Source: a virus
Taxonomy: Duplodnaviria > Caudoviricetes
Direction: 5' to 3' (one strand)
DNA: 64,000 nucleotides
IMG/VR virus record: IMGVR_UViG_3300012974_000008
Location: 4,409-68,408 of that record
Shown here: positions 38,730-51,420 of the stretch, in pieces
Layout: the number at the start of each line of letters is the position of its first letter
Position numbering within the stretch: position 1 is the first letter of the stretch
Notes under the pieces: model-generated
What the model saw: the letters and a program-made list of their open reading frames with translations, nothing else
What the model was told of the DNA's origin: nothing
Database searches by the model: none
Program-made: the position numbers and the translations under genes

Positions 38730-38842
38730 AAGCCAATCACCTCCTTCCCTACGAGTCGCGTAGGGAAGTCAGGTGGTGTCGAGGAACGGCATGTTCACCT
38801 TTCGTGCTGTTCAATGTGATTGAACACCTTGGATATTGAACG

Positions 38843-38925
38843 CGGAGAGCAGAGGAGTTGAACCCCCGGAATGATTACCGTATAGCGGCGTTCGAAACCG
38901 CGTGCCCACCGTGGGCATACTCTCC
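38843..38925 (-). tRNA. tRNA-Ser(CGA)
   Basis: GCGGT-TT CGA AC-GCCGC, long variable region, G73; no CCA. Confidence 0.85.
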
Positions 38926-39430: not shown

Positions 39431-39435
39431 TTACG

Positions 39436-39522
39436 TTCCTCGGGCGGGATTCGAACGCCGCATCTTCCGCTCTCGCGATAAAGACTCGTCAGTCTCTGCT
39501 CTGCCAATTGAGCTACCGAGGA
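39436..39522 (-). tRNA. Aberrant tRNA-like element (6-nt anticodon loop, bulged T-stem)
   Basis: Perfect acceptor TCCTCGG/CCGAGGA, canonical D-arm, GAGAC-TGACGA-GTCTT, 19-nt variable region, GCGG(C)G-TTCGAAT-CCCGC. Confidence 0.65.
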
Positions 39523-40672: not shown

Positions 40673-41452
40673 TTACAACCTCACCAACTTGTCGGATTTG
40701 GATAGATGCTGCTTCACGTAATCGATGTCGGGCTTTCGTAGGACATCGAAGTTCTCGACCAGGAACTTCGCGCTGCGACCCTTGGTCAGGCTTGTGATGG
40801 TGCGTCGCAGGGCCCACTGGTAGGCGGCACCAGGTGAACACTGGTAGTTCTGTGGGATCACCAGGCGCTCGAGGGCGGTCACGTAGATCTCCTCGCGGAA
40901 CATCTGCAGCTGGCGCTCCTTCGGCATTGCCCAGACCTTGGCCATGTCCATCTGCACCGAGTGGCCATCCTTTAGGCACTCCTCGTAGATGGGGCGATCA
41001 CCGTAGGCGACAGACTCGTGGATGGAGTCGTGGACGTAGATGCGCTTCACGGCGTCGGTGAAGAACTCCTCGGCCTCCTGCGTCAGGTCGACGACCTTCT
41101 TGCCGTGCAGGTCTTCCCAGACTTTGTACAGCAGGTCGTGCCATGCCGGAATCAGTTGCGCCCCTGCACGTTTCATGTCGACGAGGTCCATCATGTGCTT
41201 CGACCAGGACCCGTTGCGCAGCTCCCAGTAGGAGTGGCTGAACTTGATTGTGTAGAGCTCATCCAAGGTGGCCGCACGTGCGGTATTCTCGGGGATCAGC
41301 TCGGTGAGGCGGTCATCCCAGAAGACGTCACGTCGCACAGGGTCGCCGGCGAACTTGAGGCTCGTGTCGGAGAAGTAGTCCCAGTCCTTCGGGTCTCGCC
41401 ACCATGGCAGAAGACGTTGTGCTGCAGCCGATCCGATCAAGAGGGTTCGCAT
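40673..41452 (-). CDS. Putative Pol-beta-superfamily nucleotidyltransferase
   Basis: N-terminal LIGSAAA(x9)KDWDY = hGS..DxD signature; later HDSIHE motif. Confidence 0.65.
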   Translation of the reverse strand: MRTLLIGSAAAQRLLPWWRDPKDWDYFSDTSLKFAGDPVRRDVFWDDRLTELIPENTARAATLDELYTIKFSHSYWELRNGSWSKHMMDLVDMKRAGAQLIPAWHDLLYKVWEDLHGKKVVDLTQEAEEFFTDAVKRIYVHDSIHESVAYGDRPIYEECLKDGHSVQMDMAKVWAMPKERQLQMFREEIYVTALERLVIPQNYQCSPGAAYQWALRRTITSLTKGRSAKFLVENFDVLRKPDIDYVKQHLSKSDKLVRL

Positions 41453-41456
41453 GGGC

Positions 41457-41765
41457 TCACTTCAGTCCTGGGTGTTTGATTCTCGTCCATCTGTGCTTCA
41501 AAACCTCCTTGTTCTTTCGTCGTTTCCGTTGCTGTTCGTATGAGGTCTTCTTGACGTGGCAGCTGTGACATAGCGCCTGCCCGTTGGAGACGTCGTCACG
41601 GCCGGGCTTGTCGTACGGCCACGAGTCTCGGTTGATGATGTGGTCAACCTCGGTGGCCGCGCCGGTGCAGCCCTTCCACTGCAGCTCGCAGATGAAGTTG
41701 GCCCGGCGAAGTATGATGGGACGATTGCGGCGCCACTCTGGGGTTAGTGGCTCACCCCAGGTCAC
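41457..41765 (-). CDS. HNH endonuclease (packaging-type)
   Basis: CELQWKGCTGAATEVDHII..SNGQALCHSCHVKKT; upstream of terminase. Confidence 0.88.
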   Translation of the reverse strand: MTWGEPLTPEWRRNRPIILRRANFICELQWKGCTGAATEVDHIINRDSWPYDKPGRDDVSNGQALCHSCHVKKTSYEQQRKRRKNKEVLKHRWTRIKHPGLK

Positions 41766-41929
41766 TCGTGCACCGGATAGATCGAGATGAACCACTCACC
41801 CTGGATGCATGCCGGTGACACCGCGGCCGGGGACGTGACGACGTCGCCAACCCAGTCTTGCGTCTGGACCTTCACCTCAATGTCTGGACTGTGGCGATGC
41901 AGCTCTTTGATCAGCTCCGCGACCGTCAT
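41762..41929 (-). CDS. Hypothetical protein (55 aa)
   Basis: MTVAELIKELHRHSPDIEV; overlap-coupled. Confidence 0.65.
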   Translation of the reverse strand: MTVAELIKELHRHSPDIEVKVQTQDWVGDVVTSPAAVSPACIQGEWFISIYPVHE

Positions 41930-43821: not shown

Positions 43822-44040
43822 ATGAGCCACATCACCATTCGGTTCGAATTCAAGGACATCGAGGACGAGGACCTCGAGTCGACCTACCGGAGACTCTGCT
43901 GCGCACGCCGAGTAGACACGGACCTGACACAAAAGGACATTGAACGAATCACCGAGTCGCTGGGGCAGGCCGACCAGTGGCACGCCGCGGCCTTCAGCAT
44001 TCTTGACGCGATGGAAAGCGAAGGGGCGGTGGAGCTGTGA
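43822..44040 (+). CDS. Hypothetical protein
   Basis: GAGGGAG RBS, MSHITIRFEF. Confidence 0.6.
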   Translation: MSHITIRFEFKDIEDEDLESTYRRLCCARRVDTDLTQKDIERITESLGQADQWHAAAFSILDAMESEGAVEL

Positions 44041-44297
44041 GTGAGCGTGATCCATTCAATGTGTATCGCTACGAGTTGACGAGTCCCGAGAACTGGGGTG
44101 TGCGGACAGCCAGCGGGCGATACGTCATGAGGGTCTTCGCCGAAGACCTCCAGCTACTCCTCGACGAACATGACGAGCTGGCGACCATGCAGGCCTACTG
44201 CACGTCATGTCGGAACTGCGCCAAGCAGCTCGATGACCAGGTCAACATGGAGCAGTACGAGGACGAGATAGTCGAATCCGGCTGGGGTTGGCAGTGA
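44037..44297 (+). CDS. Hypothetical protein
   Basis: GTGA overlap; CTSCRNC. Confidence 0.6.
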   Translation: MSERDPFNVYRYELTSPENWGVRTASGRYVMRVFAEDLQLLLDEHDELATMQAYCTSCRNCAKQLDDQVNMEQYEDEIVESGWGWQ

Positions 44298-44438
44298 ACA
44301 TCGACGAAGTCCGGGGGTTTTTGCTGTCTGTGCATACCCCCCCGAAAAAACCCCCGGAACCCGTACGTATCGCGAGCACACGAGCGTCGCGCGCCCGCGG
44401 GGGGTGCCGGCAGGGGGGTTGACCTGCGGTTTTACAGC

Positions 44439-44691
44439 CGACCGAGCGTTCGTTCGGTGGCTCGCGGCGGCCTGACCAGCGGGTTTGCTACTGCCTAATG
44501 CCGTTAGGTTTCCCGGCCATACCCCAAGGGGGTACCCCACCGAGCGAGCGTTCGGTCGGCGCCCGACCAGTCGATTCACGGACCGAGCGAGCGTTCGGTC
44601 GGGTGACCCGGGGGTCGCCGGCGCCCAGTGTGGCACCCGACCGAGCGAACGTTCGGTCGGTTCCGCGCGCGACCGAGCGAACGTTCGGTCG
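44439..44691. repeat. Five 22-bp quasi-palindromes CGACCGAGCG-NN-CGTTCGGTCG
   Basis: Copies at 44439, 44537, 44580, 44638, 44670. Confidence 0.9.
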
Positions 44692-44740
44692 ACCCCTCGC
44701 GCGCGCGTAAGGGGAAGGCCAGACCAGCCCGACCCCCGAC

Positions 44741-44770
44741 TTGACACCCACCGCTCCACGCGGGTACAGT
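44741..44770 (+). promoter_or_regulatory. Repeated early promoter P1
   Basis: TTGACA-CCCACCGCTCCACGCGGG-TACAGT. Confidence 0.75.
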
Positions 44771-44808
44771 CGGACACGTTCGACCGAGAGACCAGCCCAA
44801 CCTACGGG

Positions 44809-44838
44809 TTGACTCCCACCGCTCCACCGTGGTACGGT
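44809..44838 (+). promoter_or_regulatory. Repeated early promoter P2
   Basis: TTGACT-CCCACCGCTCCACCGTGG-TACGGT. Confidence 0.7.
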
Positions 44839-44853
44839 GGGACCACACCGACC

Positions 44854-44874
44854 GAGAGAGAGAGAGAGAGAGAG
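44854..44874 (+). repeat. (GA)10G microsatellite in the RBS position
   Basis: Ends 6 nt upstream of ATG 44881. Confidence 0.9.
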
Positions 44875-44880
44875 CCGCCG

Positions 44881-45165
44881 ATGTTCGACTCCGCACACTC
44901 ACAAGCCGACCGGGATGCCTATCAGGCCATGACGGACGTATGGGACAGCATCTCCACCGCTGCACAACGTGATCGGGTTGCATCGATCCTGAAGATGATT
45001 GCAGCTGATGCCCATGCTGAGATTGTGCGTGCCCACTACTGCCCTTCCAATGGTTCAATCCGTATCGTCGAGTCTGATGGCATGAGTCAACTGGCAACCT
45101 ACATCCATCGTGACGGTGGGTATGAGACTGCCAAGGCAGCAAAGGCCAAGCGCATAGCCGCTTGA
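44881..45165 (+). CDS. Early hypothetical protein (94 aa)
   Basis: MFDSAHSQAD...; stop TGA lies within the next TTGACA. Confidence 0.7.
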   Translation: MFDSAHSQADRDAYQAMTDVWDSISTAAQRDRVASILKMIAADAHAEIVRAHYCPSNGSIRIVESDGMSQLATYIHRDGGYETAKAAKAKRIAA

Positions 45166-45191
45166 CACCCACCGCTCCACCGTGCTAGACT
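45162..45191 (+). promoter_or_regulatory. Repeated early promoter P3
   Basis: TTGACA-CCCACCGCTCCACCGTGC-TAGACT. Confidence 0.8.
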
Positions 45192-45199
45192 TAGCACAA

Positions 45200-45242
45200 G
45201 CAATACGGGATACCAGACCCTATCCTTCAATGGAAGTATTGC
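45200..45242 (+). ncRNA. Candidate structured leader/sRNA, copy 1
   Basis: GCAATAC/GTATTGC closing stem with GGATA/TATCC and TTC-AATG-GAA arms. Confidence 0.45.
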
Positions 45243-45297
45243 ACTAGGCCGGCTCCCTGCTGGTCCTGTCATACCCTCACTTAGGAAGGCTGGAAAA

Positions 45298-45459
45298 ATG
45301 CAGAGCTACACCTACATCAGCGGGAACACAATGGTCGCAATCGACGCTACGGATGACCTGGACGCGATCGGTCAGGCTCGACAGTGGGCGCCTGCTGGTA
45401 TGATCGGCGGGTATGACCAGCTGATCCGTGAGACCGACGACGTGGACTTGTTCGGCTAG
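45298..45459 (+). CDS. Early hypothetical protein (53 aa)
   Basis: AGGAAGG RBS; MQSYTYISGNTMVAIDATDD. Confidence 0.6.
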   Translation: MQSYTYISGNTMVAIDATDDLDAIGQARQWAPAGMIGGYDQLIRETDDVDLFG

Positions 45460-45462
45460 GGT

Positions 45463-45491
45463 TTGACACCCACCGCTCCACATGCTAGGCT
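45463..45491 (+). promoter_or_regulatory. Repeated early promoter P4
   Basis: TTGACA-CCCACCGCTCCACATGC-TAGGCT. Confidence 0.8.
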
Positions 45492-45504
45492 AACTAGCAA
45501 CAAG

Positions 45505-45548
45505 GCAATACCGGGACAATGGGCCCTATCCTTCAATGGAAGTATTGC
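45505..45548 (+). ncRNA. Candidate structured sRNA, copy 2
   Basis: Same GCAATAC...CCCTATCCTTCAATGGAAGTATTGC as copy 1; no credible ORF before P5. Confidence 0.45.
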
Positions 45549-45623
45549 GCTACACCAGCCATGCTGGTAAGTCATCCCGGTTTAGATGGTCCCTGGACAG
45601 AATCAAACCACAAACCACAAAGG

Positions 45624-45652
45624 TTGACACCCACTGCTCCACCTGCTAGACT
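45624..45652 (+). promoter_or_regulatory. Repeated early promoter P5
   Basis: TTGACA-CCCACTGCTCCACCTGC-TAGACT. Confidence 0.8.
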
Positions 45653-45681
45653 GAAACCACACCGACGAGAAAGGGCAGGGC

Positions 45682-46269
45682 ATGACACACAGAGAGGGCC
45701 AGTGGTATGGCGGGACCATCCACGGCAAGCCCAAAGTGACCGCGCCGGAGAAAGTCTCCACCACCCGTCAGCAGTACCGGGAAGGCGGAAACCCGTGGTC
45801 CAACCTGTCGCCGGCTCATGCTGTCCAAATGCGCCTGGACCTGGAGAAAATTCGTGAGGAGGGCGGCAACGTCTACGCCTACGGCCAGCGTGTCGAGAAC
45901 GTCAGTGAGGGCAGCATGTCTGACACTGAGGCAATCGTCTCCAGCGCAATCGGTGGCACAAGTGCAGCCTTCTACGTCAAGCGTGGAAACTACATTACGC
46001 ACGACGATTACCTTGCGGGCAAGCGCCAGTCCAAGGCGCCCACCGTTGCGGCGCCGCGTGTCCAGGGGACACCCAAGGTCAAGTCCACCACGGCCACAAT
46101 CAATACCGATCGTGCGGCACAGAACCGTCAGCGGCAGATTGACCAGCACGTTACGAAGCTGGTCGGGATGCCGGGTGAGCGGTGGGACAATTACCTCAAG
46201 TGGAACGTTCCCAAGGCGCAGCGGCCGATGGTGTTGTTCGAGCTCGCCAAGGCAATGACTCCGGCTTGA
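45682..46269 (+). CDS. Early hypothetical protein (195 aa)
   Basis: GAAAGGG RBS; stop TGA lies within TTGACA of P6. Confidence 0.75.
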   Translation: MTHREGQWYGGTIHGKPKVTAPEKVSTTRQQYREGGNPWSNLSPAHAVQMRLDLEKIREEGGNVYAYGQRVENVSEGSMSDTEAIVSSAIGGTSAAFYVKRGNYITHDDYLAGKRQSKAPTVAAPRVQGTPKVKSTTATINTDRAAQNRQRQIDQHVTKLVGMPGERWDNYLKWNVPKAQRPMVLFELAKAMTPA

Positions 46270-46294
46270 CACCCACCGCTCCATCAGCTAAACT
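46266..46294 (+). promoter_or_regulatory. Repeated early promoter P6
   Basis: TTGACA-CCCACCGCTCCATCAGC-TAAACT. Confidence 0.8.
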
Positions 46295-46312
46295 GAGAAC
46301 ACAAGCAAGGCA

Positions 46313-46357
46313 GCCCCGACCGAACCGGCGGGCGTGAGGTTCAAGTCCTCACGGGGC
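46313..46357 (+). ncRNA. tRNA-like minihelix (acceptor-like stem plus T-arm)
   Basis: GCCCCG..16 nt..TGAGG-TTCAAGT-CCTCA-CGGGGC. Confidence 0.5.
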
Positions 46358-46447
46358 CCGAGTGGCGACATGCCGGCACGTATGGCCGGCGGTCTATCCT
46401 GAGTCCGACAGTCAATGCAACGCTTGCAAACTGCGACTCACCCGGGA

Positions 46448-46476
46448 TTGACTTCCACTGATCCACCTGCTAGACT
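46448..46476 (+). promoter_or_regulatory. Repeated early promoter P7
   Basis: TTGACT-TCCACTGATCCACCTGC-TAGACT. Confidence 0.75.
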
Positions 46477-46512
46477 GGATACAGAAAGCAAGCCACAAAG
46501 AAAGGCTCCAAA

Positions 46513-46728
46513 ATGTTCTCCTGCCACTCCTGCGCAATCGTGGTCAACAACGACGACGACAGCCACCTGGACATGATCGACGCGGTGGAAGTCACCACCT
46601 CGATCCAGGCCATCGCCGGCGAGCTCGGCGGTCCCCTGGTCCTGAGTGAGGCGGACGTTGACGGCTACTTCGATTGCGCGCTGTGCAATCAGGTCTGCCT
46701 AGGGGACGCCTACGTCATCTCCGCTTAG
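46513..46728 (+). CDS. Small zinc-finger-like protein
   Basis: CHSC...CALC; AAAGG RBS. Confidence 0.7.
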   Translation: MFSCHSCAIVVNNDDDSHLDMIDAVEVTTSIQAIAGELGGPLVLSEADVDGYFDCALCNQVCLGDAYVISA

Positions 46729-46737
46729 GCGGAACCA

Positions 46738-46822
46738 GGTCGAGTGCCCGACGCGTAGCGAGGGTGAAAGGTTCGGGGCACAACAGTCAAGGCCCCGCGT
46801 GAGTTCGATTCTCACCCGACCA
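46738..46822 (+). ncRNA. tRNA-like element with canonical T-arm
   Basis: GGTCG(A)G/CCGACC-A ends; GGGGC/GCCCC arm; GTGAG-TTCGATT-CTCAC. Confidence 0.5.
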
Positions 46823-46869
46823 CAACTGTCTAGTTGACAGCGAGACACACACAATGAAAGGCTAGTGCA

Positions 46870-47127
46870 ATGCTGGAGATCAACACCAACGGCCGGACGG
46901 TCGAGGAGCTGCGCGAGGCGTACCCGTTCATCCAGGCCATGGGCGAATACATGGGGAGCTACCCGCACTACGTCGAGGACCAGCTGTACTTTGCCCACCA
47001 CCACAACGCGCCGGCTGATGCCACGGGGTGTGACCGGGCCGGCAAGGTCACGCGGTGGGGAGACATCCCCCGCGACCAGCTGAGACAGGAACTGTTGACG
47101 CTGGTTGCGCGCAGGCTCACCAAGTAG
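46870..47127 (+). CDS. Early hypothetical protein (85 aa)
   Basis: ORF track; MGSYPHYVEDQL..A...APADA. Confidence 0.7.
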   Translation: MLEINTNGRTVEELREAYPFIQAMGEYMGSYPHYVEDQLYFAHHHNAPADATGCDRAGKVTRWGDIPRDQLRQELLTLVARRLTK

Positions 47128-47131
47128 TGTG

Positions 47132-47161
47132 TTGACACCCACCGCTCCAACCTGCTAGTGT
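47132..47161 (+). promoter_or_regulatory. Repeated early promoter P8
   Basis: TTGACA-CCCACCGCTCCAACCTGC-TAGTGT. Confidence 0.8.
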
Positions 47162-47192
47162 CTAATCATCACCGCGACAGACGAGAGTAGCC

Positions 47193-47423
47193 ATGAACCA
47201 CTACACCCACACACTGACCGAGATCGAGCAGGCATGCGGGGTAACCCTGGACGACGTCGCACGGGAGCTCCCCCGGGTTGCACTTCGAGAGAATGCGGCC
47301 TGGGTGGACGGATCACTCGCGCCGGCGTTGGCAACATCCACCGCACGCGCTGCACTGGGTAAGCCTGCGGCCTACTCGCACCACGCCCTCAACGGAACCA
47401 TTGCGGTCTACGTGCCCAACTGA
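47193..47423 (+). CDS. Early hypothetical protein (76 aa)
   Basis: GAGAG RBS after P8. Confidence 0.65.
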   Translation: MNHYTHTLTEIEQACGVTLDDVARELPRVALRENAAWVDGSLAPALATSTARAALGKPAAYSHHALNGTIAVYVPN

Positions 47424-47493
47424 CCTGACCACTGAGTCCGTGTGCCCATGTGTCTAATACGCATGTGGACACACAACTGATGGGTTAGTTCAA
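47421..47493 (+). repeat. 73-bp intergenic repeat, copy 1
   Basis: TGACCTGACCACTG..GTCCG..TGTCTAAT..GTGGACAC..TGGGTTAGTTCAA. Confidence 0.85.
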
Positions 47494-47511
47494 ACAATAG
47501 AGGAGAAACCC

Positions 47512-48333
47512 ATGTCCAACATCGACACCACCACACGCGTCCTCGCTGACATGTGGACGGAGAACACGGGCCGGCACATGCTCGACTCGGGCGGCGCATA
47601 CGGTCGCAGCTGGGAGCGCAACCAGGCCGCAACCGCGGGCATCGACGCGGCCGAGTACTTCCTCAGCTTGCCCGAGGTCACGCTCGATGCCCGGTACGGC
47701 TATGCCGACATCACCGTGTCAGCCTTCCACTGGCTCAGTGAGATCCTGGACTACTCACCGGCCGTCAATCGCATGTTCGAGATGTTCGTCGCGCTGGAAG
47801 GCGAGAGCGATCGGCCCTGGATGGATGAGGCTGAGGCGTTCGTCGATTGGCTCACGGGACATGGCCGAGCGTCTAATGTCCAGACCGTCAACACCTACAA
47901 CGGCGAATCGTGGCTCGACTCAACGTTGCAATACGTGGTGTTCACCTACACCGACCGCGATGGCTTCGACACCGACATGGTCATGTTGCAGTACCACGGT
48001 GGGTGCGACGTCCGCGGTGGCTACACCAAGCCACGCGCGTTCTCGCTCAGCGGCTACGAGGGTCGTTATGAGCTGTACACCGAGGGCCACGTCTCGCTGT
48101 CCTGCACCGAGAACTACGGCCAGGAGATCGGCATCGGCCTGGACGGCGACACGGTTTACGCCGGCACTCACGCATGGGATTCCAACAGTTCCGGCGTCGA
48201 TTGGGTCGAGTATGGCGGCGCGTACGATACGCCGGACTTCGAGACCATCGAACCGGAGGATGACAGCACACCCTATGTCGCGTGCCCGACATGCAAGGCG
48301 CCGCTTGAAGTGTCGGTGATGTTTGGACACTGA
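47512..48333 (+). CDS. Conserved-looking phage hypothetical protein (273 aa)
   Basis: GAGGAG RBS; LDSGGAYGRSWERN, HGGCDVRGGYT, C-terminal CPTC. Confidence 0.8.
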   Translation: MSNIDTTTRVLADMWTENTGRHMLDSGGAYGRSWERNQAATAGIDAAEYFLSLPEVTLDARYGYADITVSAFHWLSEILDYSPAVNRMFEMFVALEGESDRPWMDEAEAFVDWLTGHGRASNVQTVNTYNGESWLDSTLQYVVFTYTDRDGFDTDMVMLQYHGGCDVRGGYTKPRAFSLSGYEGRYELYTEGHVSLSCTENYGQEIGIGLDGDTVYAGTHAWDSNSSGVDWVEYGGAYDTPDFETIEPEDDSTPYVACPTCKAPLEVSVMFGH

Positions 48334-48403
48334 CCTGACCACTGGGTCCGAGTGTCCATCTGTCTAATTGACAGGTGGACACTCCACCCATGGGTTAGTT
48401 CAA
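48331..48403 (+). repeat. 73-bp intergenic repeat, copy 2
   Basis: Colinear with copy 1; contains GTGTCCATCTGTC-TAATT-GACAGGTGGACAC hairpin. Confidence 0.85.
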
Positions 48404-48421
48404 GGCATGAGAGGTCACACC

Positions 48422-48529
48422 ATGAATCCCTGGTTACACGCATTGCAGTTCGTCATCGTGACCGGACTGTTCACCATCGTGACGGTGGTCGCCATCATCG
48501 TCGCTGTCGAGTTCTTCAAGGAGATCTGA
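48422..48529 (+). CDS. Small membrane peptide (35 aa)
   Basis: MNPWLHALQFVIVTGLFTIVTVVAIIVAVEFFKEI; GAGG RBS. Confidence 0.55.
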   Translation: MNPWLHALQFVIVTGLFTIVTVVAIIVAVEFFKEI

Positions 48530-48891
48530 TGCACACCACCGAACGTCTCAACAAGCTGTCGCCGAACGTGCGAGACCGAGTCAAGATCGAACGCCGCATC
48601 GTCAAGCACCTGGTCCGGGAGTTGCTGGAACACAACGTCGAACTGTCGGTACACGACGGCGAAGAGCACCACGCACCGACGCGCGACGCCGGCGCACTGT
48701 TCGATCAGCTCATGGAAACCGACTCGGACACGCTGTATGTCCATCTCATCGGCGACCATCACCCCATGGCCATGGTGATGCTGGTCTACGGCAACGACGG
48801 TTGGGACGTCATGTCCGACTACTCGATCAGTCTCGAACATCAGGGGCTCATCACCAAGACCATCGAGCTCACAGATTCGCTGGGAGGCTGA
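48529..48891 (+). CDS. Hypothetical protein (120 aa)
   Basis: TGATG overlap; LVYGNDGWDVMSDYS. Confidence 0.7.
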   Translation: MHTTERLNKLSPNVRDRVKIERRIVKHLVRELLEHNVELSVHDGEEHHAPTRDAGALFDQLMETDSDTLYVHLIGDHHPMAMVMLVYGNDGWDVMSDYSISLEHQGLITKTIELTDSLGG

Positions 48892-48894
48892 GTC

Positions 48895-49377
48895 ATGGGT
48901 TACTGCACCGACATGCAAGGCCGATTGTGCTGCGACAACTGCGGGCAGTCGGGCGGTGTCCGTAAGCGCAAGTGCAAGTACAAGGTGACCACCGACAATC
49001 ACCGATCGTCGGCCCGGCATGTGATCCACTACTGCTACCCGCCGGCGTTGTGCCAGGGATGCTATCGCGAACTGGGCGGCATCAATGGCGTCCACGGTGC
49101 AATGTGCCACGGGGGTGCGGCGGCGGCGCAAGTCGAGTATGACCGCAAGCAGGCACTACTAGACGCGGGCAAGCACATGGTGGTCGCCGCATATGGCAGC
49201 TGGCAGGAGTCGGTGCCCGACGGCATGGTCGGCGTGCACTTCGCGAGTGCGAAGTACTCGGATCATCGTCACGTCCTCATGCCCCATGAGGACTACAACA
49301 ATCGGGACATCGACCGACGTTTCTCCACGCTGGAAGACCACTACCCCAACGCGACCGAATGGATCAATCACCCTTAG
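48895..49377 (+). CDS. Zinc-finger-like hypothetical protein
   Basis: CCDNCG, LCQGC motifs. Confidence 0.7.
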   Translation: MGYCTDMQGRLCCDNCGQSGGVRKRKCKYKVTTDNHRSSARHVIHYCYPPALCQGCYRELGGINGVHGAMCHGGAAAAQVEYDRKQALLDAGKHMVVAAYGSWQESVPDGMVGVHFASAKYSDHRHVLMPHEDYNNRDIDRRFSTLEDHYPNATEWINHP

Positions 49378-49381
49378 GGGG

Positions 49382-49411
49382 TTGACTTCCACTGTTCACA
49401 CCTGCTAGTGT
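49382..49411 (+). promoter_or_regulatory. Repeated early promoter P9
   Basis: TTGACT-TCCACTGTTCACACCTGC-TAGTGT. Confidence 0.7.
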
Positions 49412-49461
49412 CTAATTAACAGCGAGACAGACAAGAGAGATAAGCATGAAAGGCAAGACCT

Positions 49462-50085
49462 ATGGCACGCAAGCGTCCACCGCTCTACAAGCAGACCAAT
49501 GGCATCGGTGGTCGAGCAATGGTCTCGAACATCCTGTCAGTGTTCGACCAGGCTACCGACGCTGACATCATCGCTGGTCAGCTCTGGTACAAGGAGGCAC
49601 TTGACATCGCCCACCAGTGCGCCCTACTGTCTAACCGACAGCTAGAGGCTAGTGCGGTTGCAATTGCGCACCTATCGCCTCAGGTCAGGTGGGAGGACAA
49701 CGTGGCGTTTGCACTGGCGCTCGCGACACCCGGCGCGCCGGCCGACCGGGCACCCCGCGTGCCCGGCACCGCCGGCGTGACGCACGCGAACTGGCGCAGG
49801 GCATACCACGCCTTGCATCACTCCCCCGATCCGCTCGGCGAGATGACACCGGGCATCAAGACTCACGCGTTCGCGCACAACATCCTGGGCCACACCGACT
49901 ACGTGACCGTGGACTCGTGGGCAATGCGTATCGCCGGCGTGGACTACAAGCACATCAACCGTGCGGGTGTCTATGCCGGTGTGTCTAATGCCTACCGCAA
50001 CGCTGCACGCACGGTCGGTATCGAACCATCTGAGATGCAGGCGATCACCTGGGTTGCCGCACACACCCTGAAAGGCAAGTCATGA
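49462..50085 (+). CDS. Helical protein, possibly HhH-GPD/DNA-glycosylase-like fold
   Basis: AGQLWY, AHLSPQVRWEDN, KTHAF, VTVDSWA, MQAITW; fold call is from memory of the family. Confidence 0.55.
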   Translation: MARKRPPLYKQTNGIGGRAMVSNILSVFDQATDADIIAGQLWYKEALDIAHQCALLSNRQLEASAVAIAHLSPQVRWEDNVAFALALATPGAPADRAPRVPGTAGVTHANWRRAYHALHHSPDPLGEMTPGIKTHAFAHNILGHTDYVTVDSWAMRIAGVDYKHINRAGVYAGVSNAYRNAARTVGIEPSEMQAITWVAAHTLKGKS

Positions 50086-51213: not shown

Positions 51214-51420
51214 ATGACCCGCAAACGCTACCGTGTGATCTTCGCCGACGGCATGATCGTTCGAGTCGACGCCGTCGGTGTCCAAGACGCCGCCGATCAG
51301 GTGTACGACCAGGACGATGACGGCGAGCAGGACGAGATCGTCGCGATCATCGCCGAAGTTGACGCGCAAGACAACAGGGATGTTGCGTTCGCGGTCATTG
51401 ACACCACCCGCCCGTACTGA
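51214..51420 (+). CDS. Hypothetical acidic protein
   Basis: GAGGG RBS. Confidence 0.6.
   Translation: MTRKRYRVIFADGMIVRVDAVGVQDAADQVYDQDDDGEQDEIVAIIAEVDAQDNRDVAFAVIDTTRPY

Follow-up and report, generated by a model that had tools for sequence, protein, structure and literature searches.

What is encoded in a stretch of phage DNA that lies between two early promoters and carries no gene? This question arises for the interval between the promoters P6 and P7 (positions 46295–46447) in the DNA analyzed here, a 64,000-nt stretch of an IMG/VR virus record that is referred to as the window. For this interval the initial annotation had proposed a minihelix consisting of an acceptor stem and a T-arm, followed by further structured RNA and without coding content, and both the fold and the covariation described below agree with that proposal.

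Genomic context of the P6–P7 interval

The IMG/VR record is a 68.4-kb fragment with an estimated completeness of 74%. The region of interest represents the right-hand-end early region of a Gordonia phage of cluster CQ (Smoothievirus/Oneupvirus), and the DNA shares 80–86% identity with CQ phages of Gordonia terrae, the plus strand of the window corresponding to the minus strand of the deposited genomes. CQ phages have genomes of ~93 kb with cohesive ends (Pope et al., 2017; PMC5559632). The early region consists of a series of repeated sigma-70-like promoters and the small plus-strand genes, without an assigned function, that they drive; the neighboring proteins had no match in Pfam and matched only families of unassigned function in PHROGs.

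The P6 promoter overlaps the stop codon of an upstream 195-aa ORF (45682–46269). It was found in WilliamBoone and BrutonGaster and is missing from the Smoothie-type phages. The leader that follows it, GAGAACACAAGCAAGGCA, also occurs after P7 of WilliamBoone and P6 of BrutonGaster (Table 1). The gene content of the P4 and P6 cassettes is zero. In the neighborhood of the module described below, the Smoothie-group genomes align to the window only over 46362–46458, and the module forms an island of DNA conservation (80–86% identity) between flanking genes that are not alignable. The homologous interval is unannotated in the deposited genomes of the relatives.

Upstream of the first early promoters, at ~44400–44700, runs of C and G/T/A homopolymers and several quasi-palindromes around CGAGCG-TTCGGTCGG were observed. 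Probably these sequences mark the phage's packaging or cohesive-end region, which the assembly has joined; Rfam searches of this region gave only chance-level matches to miRNA-like hairpins.

Table 1. Features of the P6–P7 module and of related elements in the window.
Feature	Position	Strand	Description
Promoter P6	46266–46294	+	TTGACA-17-TAAACT; repeat-consensus search; 10/12 matches in sigma-70 scan
5′ leader	46295–46312	+	GAGAACACAAGCAAGGCA; short, common to other cassettes
tRNA-like element, type A	46313–46357	+	Acceptor-like closing helix stacked on canonical T-arm
Closing helix	46313–46318/46352–46357	+	GCCCCG/CGGGGC
Mini-arm	46320–46322/46329–46331	+	CCG/CGG, loop AACCGG; within 16-nt stretch 46319–46334
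T-arm	46335–46351 (or 46334–46352 as 6 bp)	+	TGAGG-TTCAAGT-CCTCA
3′ tail	46358–46361	+	C-CGA; position of discriminator plus CCA; family pattern N-C-N-A
Linker	46362–46370	+	GTGGCGACA; invariant in all aligned copies; its GAC opens H2
Hairpin H2	46367–46394	+	GAC/GTC base, GCCGGC/GCCGGC stem, variable loop
Hairpin H3	46396–46448	+	ATCC/GGAT, GAGTC/GACTC, CAGT/ACTG, TGCAA/TTGCA; CGC loop
Promoter P7	46448–46476	+	TTGACT-17-TAGACT (TTGACTTCCAC...TAGACT); repeat-consensus search and sigma-70 scan
Paralogous module of P4 cassette	45463–45629	+	P4 (45463–45491), element, H2′–H3′, then P5
Element of P4 cassette, type C	45505–45552	+	GCAATAC/GTATTGC, TCC-TTCAAT-GGA, tail G-CTA
Degenerate H2′–H3′	45544–45629	+	R1 match, outside seed alignment
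Third element, type C	45200–45246	+	Directly after promoter P3, upstream of 53-aa ORF; fold
Fourth element, type D	46738–46825	+	Between two early ORFs; ~85-nt near-cloverleaf; tail A-CAA

A tRNA-like element with a canonical T-arm

The closing helix, the T-arm, the 16-nt stretch between them, and two further stems (GCCGGC-ACGTATG-GCCGGC at 46372–46390 and GAGTC..TGCAA-CGC-TTGCA..GACTC at 46401–46439) had all been listed in the initial annotation and were recovered exactly as given there. Its view that the D and anticodon arms are replaced by 16 nt was correct as regards the length; these nucleotides are not a plain linker, however, as in 3/3 type-A copies they contain a mini-arm of 3 bp whose loop has GG at its end. 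When the element was folded alone with its tail (46 nt), the minimum free energy (MFE) structure was a three-way junction of closing helix, mini-arm, and T-arm, and the same junction was obtained with RNAalifold from the three type-A copies. The T-arm has the tRNA-typical G53–C61, U54, U55, C56, R57, and A58, and CGGGGC adjoins it directly, giving a stack of 11 bp.

The sequence GGTTCAAGTCC (46338–46348) is the only match to the T-arm motif GGTTCRANYCC in the window outside true tRNAs: the 64 kb contain six matches (five in tRNAs called by ARAGORN and the one at 46338), compared with 0.73 expected from shuffles. At 46313–46357 this motif thus occurs inside a non-canonical tRNA-like fold, which is the hallmark of t-elements. 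Like these, the element is intergenic; it lies on the strand of the early ORFs and downstream of both P5 and P6, from which it would presumably be transcribed. A scan for T-loop hairpins enclosed in a closing helix gave three matches within 1.2 kb of the early region, against about one per shuffled window, and in the rest of the window the tRNAs themselves and two other matches. The folding energy of the whole 153-nt interval was no better than that of shuffled sequences on either strand (z ~−1.1), and support for the module therefore comes from covariation and not from energy.

Two relaxed-scan matches lie elsewhere in the window. A 33-nt match on the minus strand (38809–38841; 7-bp closing helix, 3-bp stem, 6-nt TTCRA-type loop) is located directly 3′ of a tRNA-Ser gene (38842–38925) inside the tRNA array and could be due to chance or be a further mini tRNA-like element. 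The plus-strand match at 51245–51278 (8-bp closing helix, 3-bp stem) has the tail TGTC without the N-C-N-A pattern and is probably due to chance.

A family of elements in related phages

Thirteen elements from six phages were parsed by their coordinates in a script. They represent three designs: type A, with three copies (window P6, WilliamBoone, and BrutonGaster); type B, with five (Smoothie, Culver, Engineer, OneUp copy 2, and a second BrutonGaster element); and type C, also with five (window 45200 and 45505, and the first copies of WilliamBoone, Smoothie, and OneUp). Type B has an anticodon-like arm of 6–7 bp with a loop that lacks U33, and type C has a GGG/CCC arm and a TTCAAT loop. In the relatives, types A and B match GGTTCRANYCC, in contrast to type C with its shorter loop. 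The three types are similar in shape and have hardly any sequence in common; type C could not be aligned with types A and B in MAFFT, and the types were compared via coordinates. RNAalifold analyses of each type separately gave the same junction, with compensatory pairs in each.

The 13 elements contain eight distinct closing helices (GCCCCG/CGGGGC, GCCCC/GGGGC, GCGTTG/CAACGC, GCGATG/CATCGC, GCCTAG/CTAGGC, GCAATAC/GTATTGC, GCGATAC/GTATCGC, and GGAATTAC/GTAATTCC) and eight distinct T-stems, with a pairing of 100%. Since all of these helices are paired and compensatory changes occur in all types, the tRNA-like fold is kept by selection. The T-loop, whose conservation in relatives had been set beforehand as a test, is conserved in every relative, with covariation in the surrounding helices. 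Closing helix and T-stem always add up to 10–11 bp, in splits of 6 + 5, 5 + 6, 6 + 4, 7 + 3, and 8 + 3. In the tail N-C-N-A, both C74 and A76 are present in 13/13 elements. C74 is also found in 7/7 true tRNA genes of the phage, only 2/7 of which encode CCA, and A76 is kept more strictly in the elements than in the tRNAs encoded by the phage. A C at position 75 is not a constant of the family, and A, C, or G is found at position −1.

In most copies (window P3, P4, and P6; Smoothie copy 1; OneUp copy 1) a promoter is located directly upstream of the element. The Smoothie-type copies start a few bases past the stop codon of the preceding gene and lack an intervening promoter.

The window holds a further element, type D, which has a 12-nt “anticodon” loop, the T-arm GTGAG-TTCGATT-CTCAC, and an acceptor with a conserved A–C mismatch. 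Homologs of 83–86% identity occur, unannotated, in 26 records of Woesvirus, phages of ~73 kb that belong to a different cluster, where they sit between two strong hairpins (loci L011, 1500–1587, and L012, 1500–1580). The differences in the acceptor and the anticodon stem are compensatory, and the anticodon-like arm is shortened in Woes itself. ARAGORN called none of the type-D elements, and the only Rfam signal for type D was a sub-threshold match to tRNA-Sec (18 bits).

Two covarying hairpins and a repeated module

Downstream of the element, the linker leads into the hairpins H2 and H3. An alignment of nine copies of this downstream block was scored against an author-specified structure: 95.5% of the cells were paired, with 10 compensatory pairs counted among sequences that are few and related, a result reached by 0/500 shuffles, and partner-slid controls gave 23–49%. 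In H2, 98.8% of the cells are paired and two pairs are changed on both sides; its loop varies in length and sequence, and the stem differs in OneUp copy 2 (CTGTG/CACAG) and likewise in Smoothie copy 1. H3 has eight pairs changed on both sides. These lie in its three lower segments, as seen in GAGTC/GACTC, GACTC/GAGTC, and GGATT/AATCC, whereas the apical segment is conserved in sequence, except that the P4 copy of the window and WilliamBoone have lost this sequence. RNAalifold predicts H3 in both subfamilies. The stem GAGTC..TGCAA-CGC-TTGCA..GACTC proposed in the initial annotation is thus present, but it had been drawn too short, as H3 extends over four segments. Fifteen G–U cells in H2 and H3 would become A–C mismatches if read on the opposite strand. 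The structure hence belongs to the strand of the early genes, and the occurrence of these G–U pairs on one strand favors an RNA over a site in duplex DNA.

The linker sequence GTGGCGACA occurs four times in the window, compared with 1.05 times expected, which is no significant excess, and its other three sites (5384, 28906, and 29092) are far from the early region. The 3′ end of H3 abuts the −35 box of P7, and in the relatives a promoter of the TTGACTTCCAC type is found directly 3′ of every full-scoring H2–H3 module.

A covariance model of H2 and H3 (R1) was searched over the window and nine loci. The hairpins at 46367–46448 scored 94.2 bits, and copies outside the seed were detected as second copy in Smoothie/Cucurbita (81 bits), in the window at 45544–45629 (43.9 bits, E 4e-9), and in WilliamBoone (40 bits). 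A type-C element lies 5′ and a promoter 3′ of each of these unseeded copies, and the unit is therefore defined as tRNA-like element, linker, H2, H3, and next promoter; it occurs twice per genome in the early right end. The P6 cassette had been regarded as a single case, which the two paralogous modules per genome contradict, and the “three-way junction” that had been noticed separately at 45200 and 45505 belongs to the same tRNA-like family. Within the unit, the tRNA-like part is exchangeable between designs. In IMG/VR, a search with the conserved H3 core pattern found only CQ phages that were already known (3 contigs), and it gave no match in 185,579 prokaryote genomes.

Comparison with known RNAs and other candidate identities

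Several established identities were tried and rejected. ARAGORN found seven tRNAs in the window, none of them at 46313, and none in the loci of six relatives; RF00005 had no match at 46313 even at E-values up to 10, the 16-nt mini-arm stretch taking the place of the D and anticodon arms. A tmRNA is likewise excluded by the lack of an ARAGORN call, of an Rfam match, and of a tag reading frame. In gathering mode, Rfam detected only the true tRNAs in the whole window; in E-value mode, a search of 44000–50000 and of four relatives' loci gave only sub-threshold mascRNA and tRNA-Sec signals in the window and no signal in the relatives. The mascRNA-menRNA match (RF01684; 46312–46358) reached 21.3 bits (E 0.88), which is below the gathering threshold of 42.5. 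No intrinsic terminator was found on the plus strand in 44400–48000, H2 being followed by CUAUCC and H3 by AUUGAC and neither by a U-tract. The element is no copy of a host tRNA end, as the exact 22-mer of T-arm plus acceptor is absent from 185,579 bacterial and archaeal genomes. The palindrome TGCAA-CGC-TTGCA was considered as a repeated operator, but the window contains a single TGCAACGCTTGCA, no more than chance would give. The statement that no ORF lies between P6 and P7 holds in substance: a 29-aa ORF starting with GTG (46362–46451) is cut to 12 codons in WilliamBoone and lies in another frame in OneUp copy 1.

The suggestion that nucleotidyltransferases of the phage add CCA was not borne out, since no domain of a class-II CCA-adding enzyme (PF01743) was found in the 68-kb record, and the 259-aa protein encoded upstream of the tRNA array (40673–41452, minus strand) matched DUF7275 (E 3e-64) and DUF7277 only. 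The adjacent ORF at 41457–41795 (minus strand) encodes an HNH endonuclease domain. At 39435–39522 (minus strand), ARAGORN reported a tRNA of undetermined identity with a 4-base anticodon (gacg), which scored 37 bits with the Rfam tRNA model.

The closest parallel are the t-elements of plant mitochondria, which serve as substrates of RNase P and RNase Z and, once released, gain non-templated C/A (Forner et al., 2007; PMC1920247). The phage elements share with them a non-canonical tRNA-like fold within a longer transcript, a GGTTCRANYCC T-arm with an acceptor-like stem, and a location beside mRNA ends or between genes. Unlike the phage elements, which lie in an early region, the t-elements are organellar and were demonstrated by end mapping. 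Particular to the phage module are its invariable linkage to two covarying hairpins and a promoter, the location of elements directly after promoters, the three interchangeable designs, and the constant stack length.

RNase P and RNase Z also cut the vertebrate mascRNA, which receives CCA. The mascRNA/MEN-beta family gave the only Rfam signal on the 46313 element and resembles it as a tRNA-like fold at a transcript processing site; it is, however, a nuclear RNA with a full cloverleaf, and the sub-threshold score indicates likeness of shape, not membership. In C4 of phages P1/P7 (RF01695) and CI of P4, RNase P makes the 5′ end on a tRNA-like acceptor helix. These are phage-encoded, promoter-proximal, small structured RNAs as well, but they function as antisense immunity RNAs whose loops are complementary to nearby targets, and they lack a T-loop; no such antisense complementarity and no Rfam match was seen for the P6–P7 module. 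The tRNA-like domain of tmRNA also has an acceptor helix, a T-arm, a reduced D region, and no anticodon arm, whereas the helix of the P6 element closes locally within ~46 nt and not by the ends of a long RNA, and the module has neither a tag frame nor pseudoknots. Finally, the RNase III sites of the T7 early genes are irregular intercistronic hairpins of a lytic phage that would define and protect mRNA ends, as H2 and H3 might, H3 having ~18 bp with internal loops. H3 differs from them in its length of less than two helical turns, and the phage hairpins differ in their coupling to a tRNA-like element. No description of the elements was found in the literature on Gordonia or other phages, and Pope et al. 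(2017; PMC5559632) list the CQ phages and do not mention them.

Possible functions of the module

On precursor tRNAs, RNase P, RNase Z, and the CCA-adding enzyme read G1, the stack of acceptor and T-arm, the T-loop, the elbow, and the tail with C74. Because the features kept in the elements are those read by these enzymes, and because t-elements direct such cuts, a processing signal is rated as the best explanation; judged from the sequences, there is about an even chance that the module marks early transcripts for RNase P and 3′ tRNA processing in the manner of a t-element. According to this model, early transcripts would start at P6 and also arrive by read-through from P5 and the 195-aa gene. 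The stretch 46313–46357 with the tail to 46361 imitates the top half of a tRNA, including a small D-like arm, and would be taken as a pre-tRNA by the tRNA-maturation enzymes of the host. RNase P is predicted to cut at 46312/46313, and RNase Z or an equivalent activity at or just past the discriminator (46358–46361). These cuts would create defined ends of early RNAs, split the upstream from the downstream message, and release a tRNA-like RNA of ~46–49 nt, and H2 and H3 would remain at the new 5′ end of the downstream RNA, either protective or further processed, just before P7.

Several observations argue for such a processing signal. Its canonical T-arm motif is otherwise confined to the tRNAs of the window and lies in a junction that is the MFE structure; the constant 10–11-bp stack would be imposed by enzymes that measure from the tRNA elbow, which the GG-ending arm loop could form with the T-loop; the element begins with G1, and the C74 of its N-C-N-A tail is common to the seven tRNA genes. 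Covarying hairpins with a strand fixed by G–U pairs in two modules per genome, the conservation of the module as a DNA island between non-alignable genes, and the intercistronic location of the Smoothie-type element, which resembles that of plant mitochondrial t-elements, are also consistent with it. On the other hand, the stack is shorter than the 12 bp of tRNAs, position −1 is not the U preferred by RNase P, and without a conserved C75 only part of the RCCA contact with RNase P would form. The lack of exceptional folding energy of the whole interval also stands against it, and the invariant GTGGCGACA and the apex of H3 are left unaccounted for.

A further objection is that three of the four window elements (after P3, P4, and P6) start only ~10–20 nt past a promoter, so that there is little upstream RNA to remove, and this arrangement fits a small RNA or a protected 5′ end better than punctuation. 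The product itself may hence be the point, namely a stable trans-acting small RNA that consists of the tRNA top-half mimic alone or together with H2 and H3 and acts, for example, as decoy or sponge for host factors that work on the acceptor/CCA end or the T-arm of tRNAs, such as abortive-infection toxins or modification enzymes. This is conceivable, though improbable. It would explain the dedicated promoters upstream of most copies, the geneless P4 and P6 cassettes, the retention of the elbow-forming parts, and the strict A76, and it has a precedent in the phage small RNAs matured by RNase P (C4 of P1/P7 and CI of P4). However, such an RNA has no known target, the sequence differences between the types argue against a sequence-specific partner, the Smoothie-type element has no promoter of its own, and the 68-kb record lacks a CCA-adding enzyme domain. 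An anticodon arm is missing from types A and C, which makes it unlikely that they divert anticodon nucleases, whereas a decoy for acceptor-end enzymes is possible. A dedicated gene for a mimic that is matured like a tRNA, accumulates early, and distracts host enzymes that target the acceptor/CCA end or the T-arm of tRNAs (such as the nucleotidyltransferase or pyrophosphokinase toxins found in abortive-infection systems, which are common in Actinobacteria), with H2 and H3 as a stabilizing or partner-binding body, appears distinctly improbable.

The promoter-proximal location of most copies would also suit a cis-acting leader that is never cut and either stabilizes the transcript at its 5′ or 3′ end against RNase J, RNase E, or 3′ exonucleases or serves as a put/nut-like antitermination signal that alters RNA polymerase or the fate of the transcript, with H3 insulating or tuning P7. 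The invariable position of H3 directly upstream of a TTGACTTCCAC-type promoter fits this idea, and the invariant linker and the H3 apex suggest a sequence-specific binding partner; nevertheless, two copies (window P4 and WilliamBoone) have lost the apex sequence. A stabilizer would need neither a canonical T-loop nor a constant 10–11-bp stack nor an N-C-N-A tail, no such element accompanies P5 and P7, the promoters of the actual genes, and no U-tract follows H2 or H3, which together make an uncut leader rather improbable. Effects at the DNA or protein level, i.e., an operator or activator site of P7 at TGCAA-CGC-TTGCA or a peptide gene starting at GTG 46362, are very unlikely. The palindrome and GTGGCGACA are indeed conserved in sequence just before P7, and the 29-aa frame is open to the same TGA in the window, BrutonGaster, Smoothie, Culver, and Engineer and reads CxxC...CxxC in the Smoothie group. 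Yet the frame is truncated or shifted in other relatives as described above, its GTG has no upstream ribosome-binding site, and the Smoothie and Culver frames are set apart by one synonymous change and four radical amino-acid replacements, which, seen in the RNA, preserve wobble pairing, compensate for one another, or fall in loops. The G–U pairs and the compensatory changes in the three lower segments of H3 would have no explanation in a double-stranded DNA site, and the palindrome, found once, is not above chance. Phage genomes do carry tRNA arrays and debris, type D resembles a damaged cloverleaf, and the elements are called by neither ARAGORN nor Rfam, so that they might be decayed tRNA genes or fragments in a mosaic region that are functionless now. 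That they are such relics is extremely unlikely in view of the perfect pairing in eight closing helices and eight T-stems, the compensatory changes in all types, the invariant tail positions, the fixed placement before H2–H3 and a promoter twice per genome, and the lack of an exact match to T-arm plus acceptor in 185,579 genomes.

Implications for phage biology and annotation

If the module is cut as predicted, lytic actinobacteriophages would shape their early transcripts with the tRNA-maturation machinery of the host, as plant mitochondria do, and the constant 10–11-bp stack would amount to a natural experiment on how small a substrate of RNase P, RNase Z, and the CCA-adding enzyme can be. 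If instead the elements were decoys, they would represent an RNA-based anti-defense strategy distinct from carrying replacement tRNAs. The fixed coupling of element, hairpins, and promoter offers a small and clean target for deletion and reporter work in the Gordonia terrae system.

Approximately 30 deposited genomes of the CQ cluster and of Woesvirus carry conserved elements that are unannotated, and a covariance model of the family, which is missing from Rfam, would improve phage annotation. Deposited gene starts may be affected as well, at least that of BrutonGaster gene 169, which appears to run through an element. In BrutonGaster a type-B element (locus 964–1021) lies just past gene 170, and the deposited start of gene 169 (GTG, locus 990) falls within the T-arm of this element; the real start of gene 169 looks like a GTG ~85 nt downstream that is preceded by GAAAGG.
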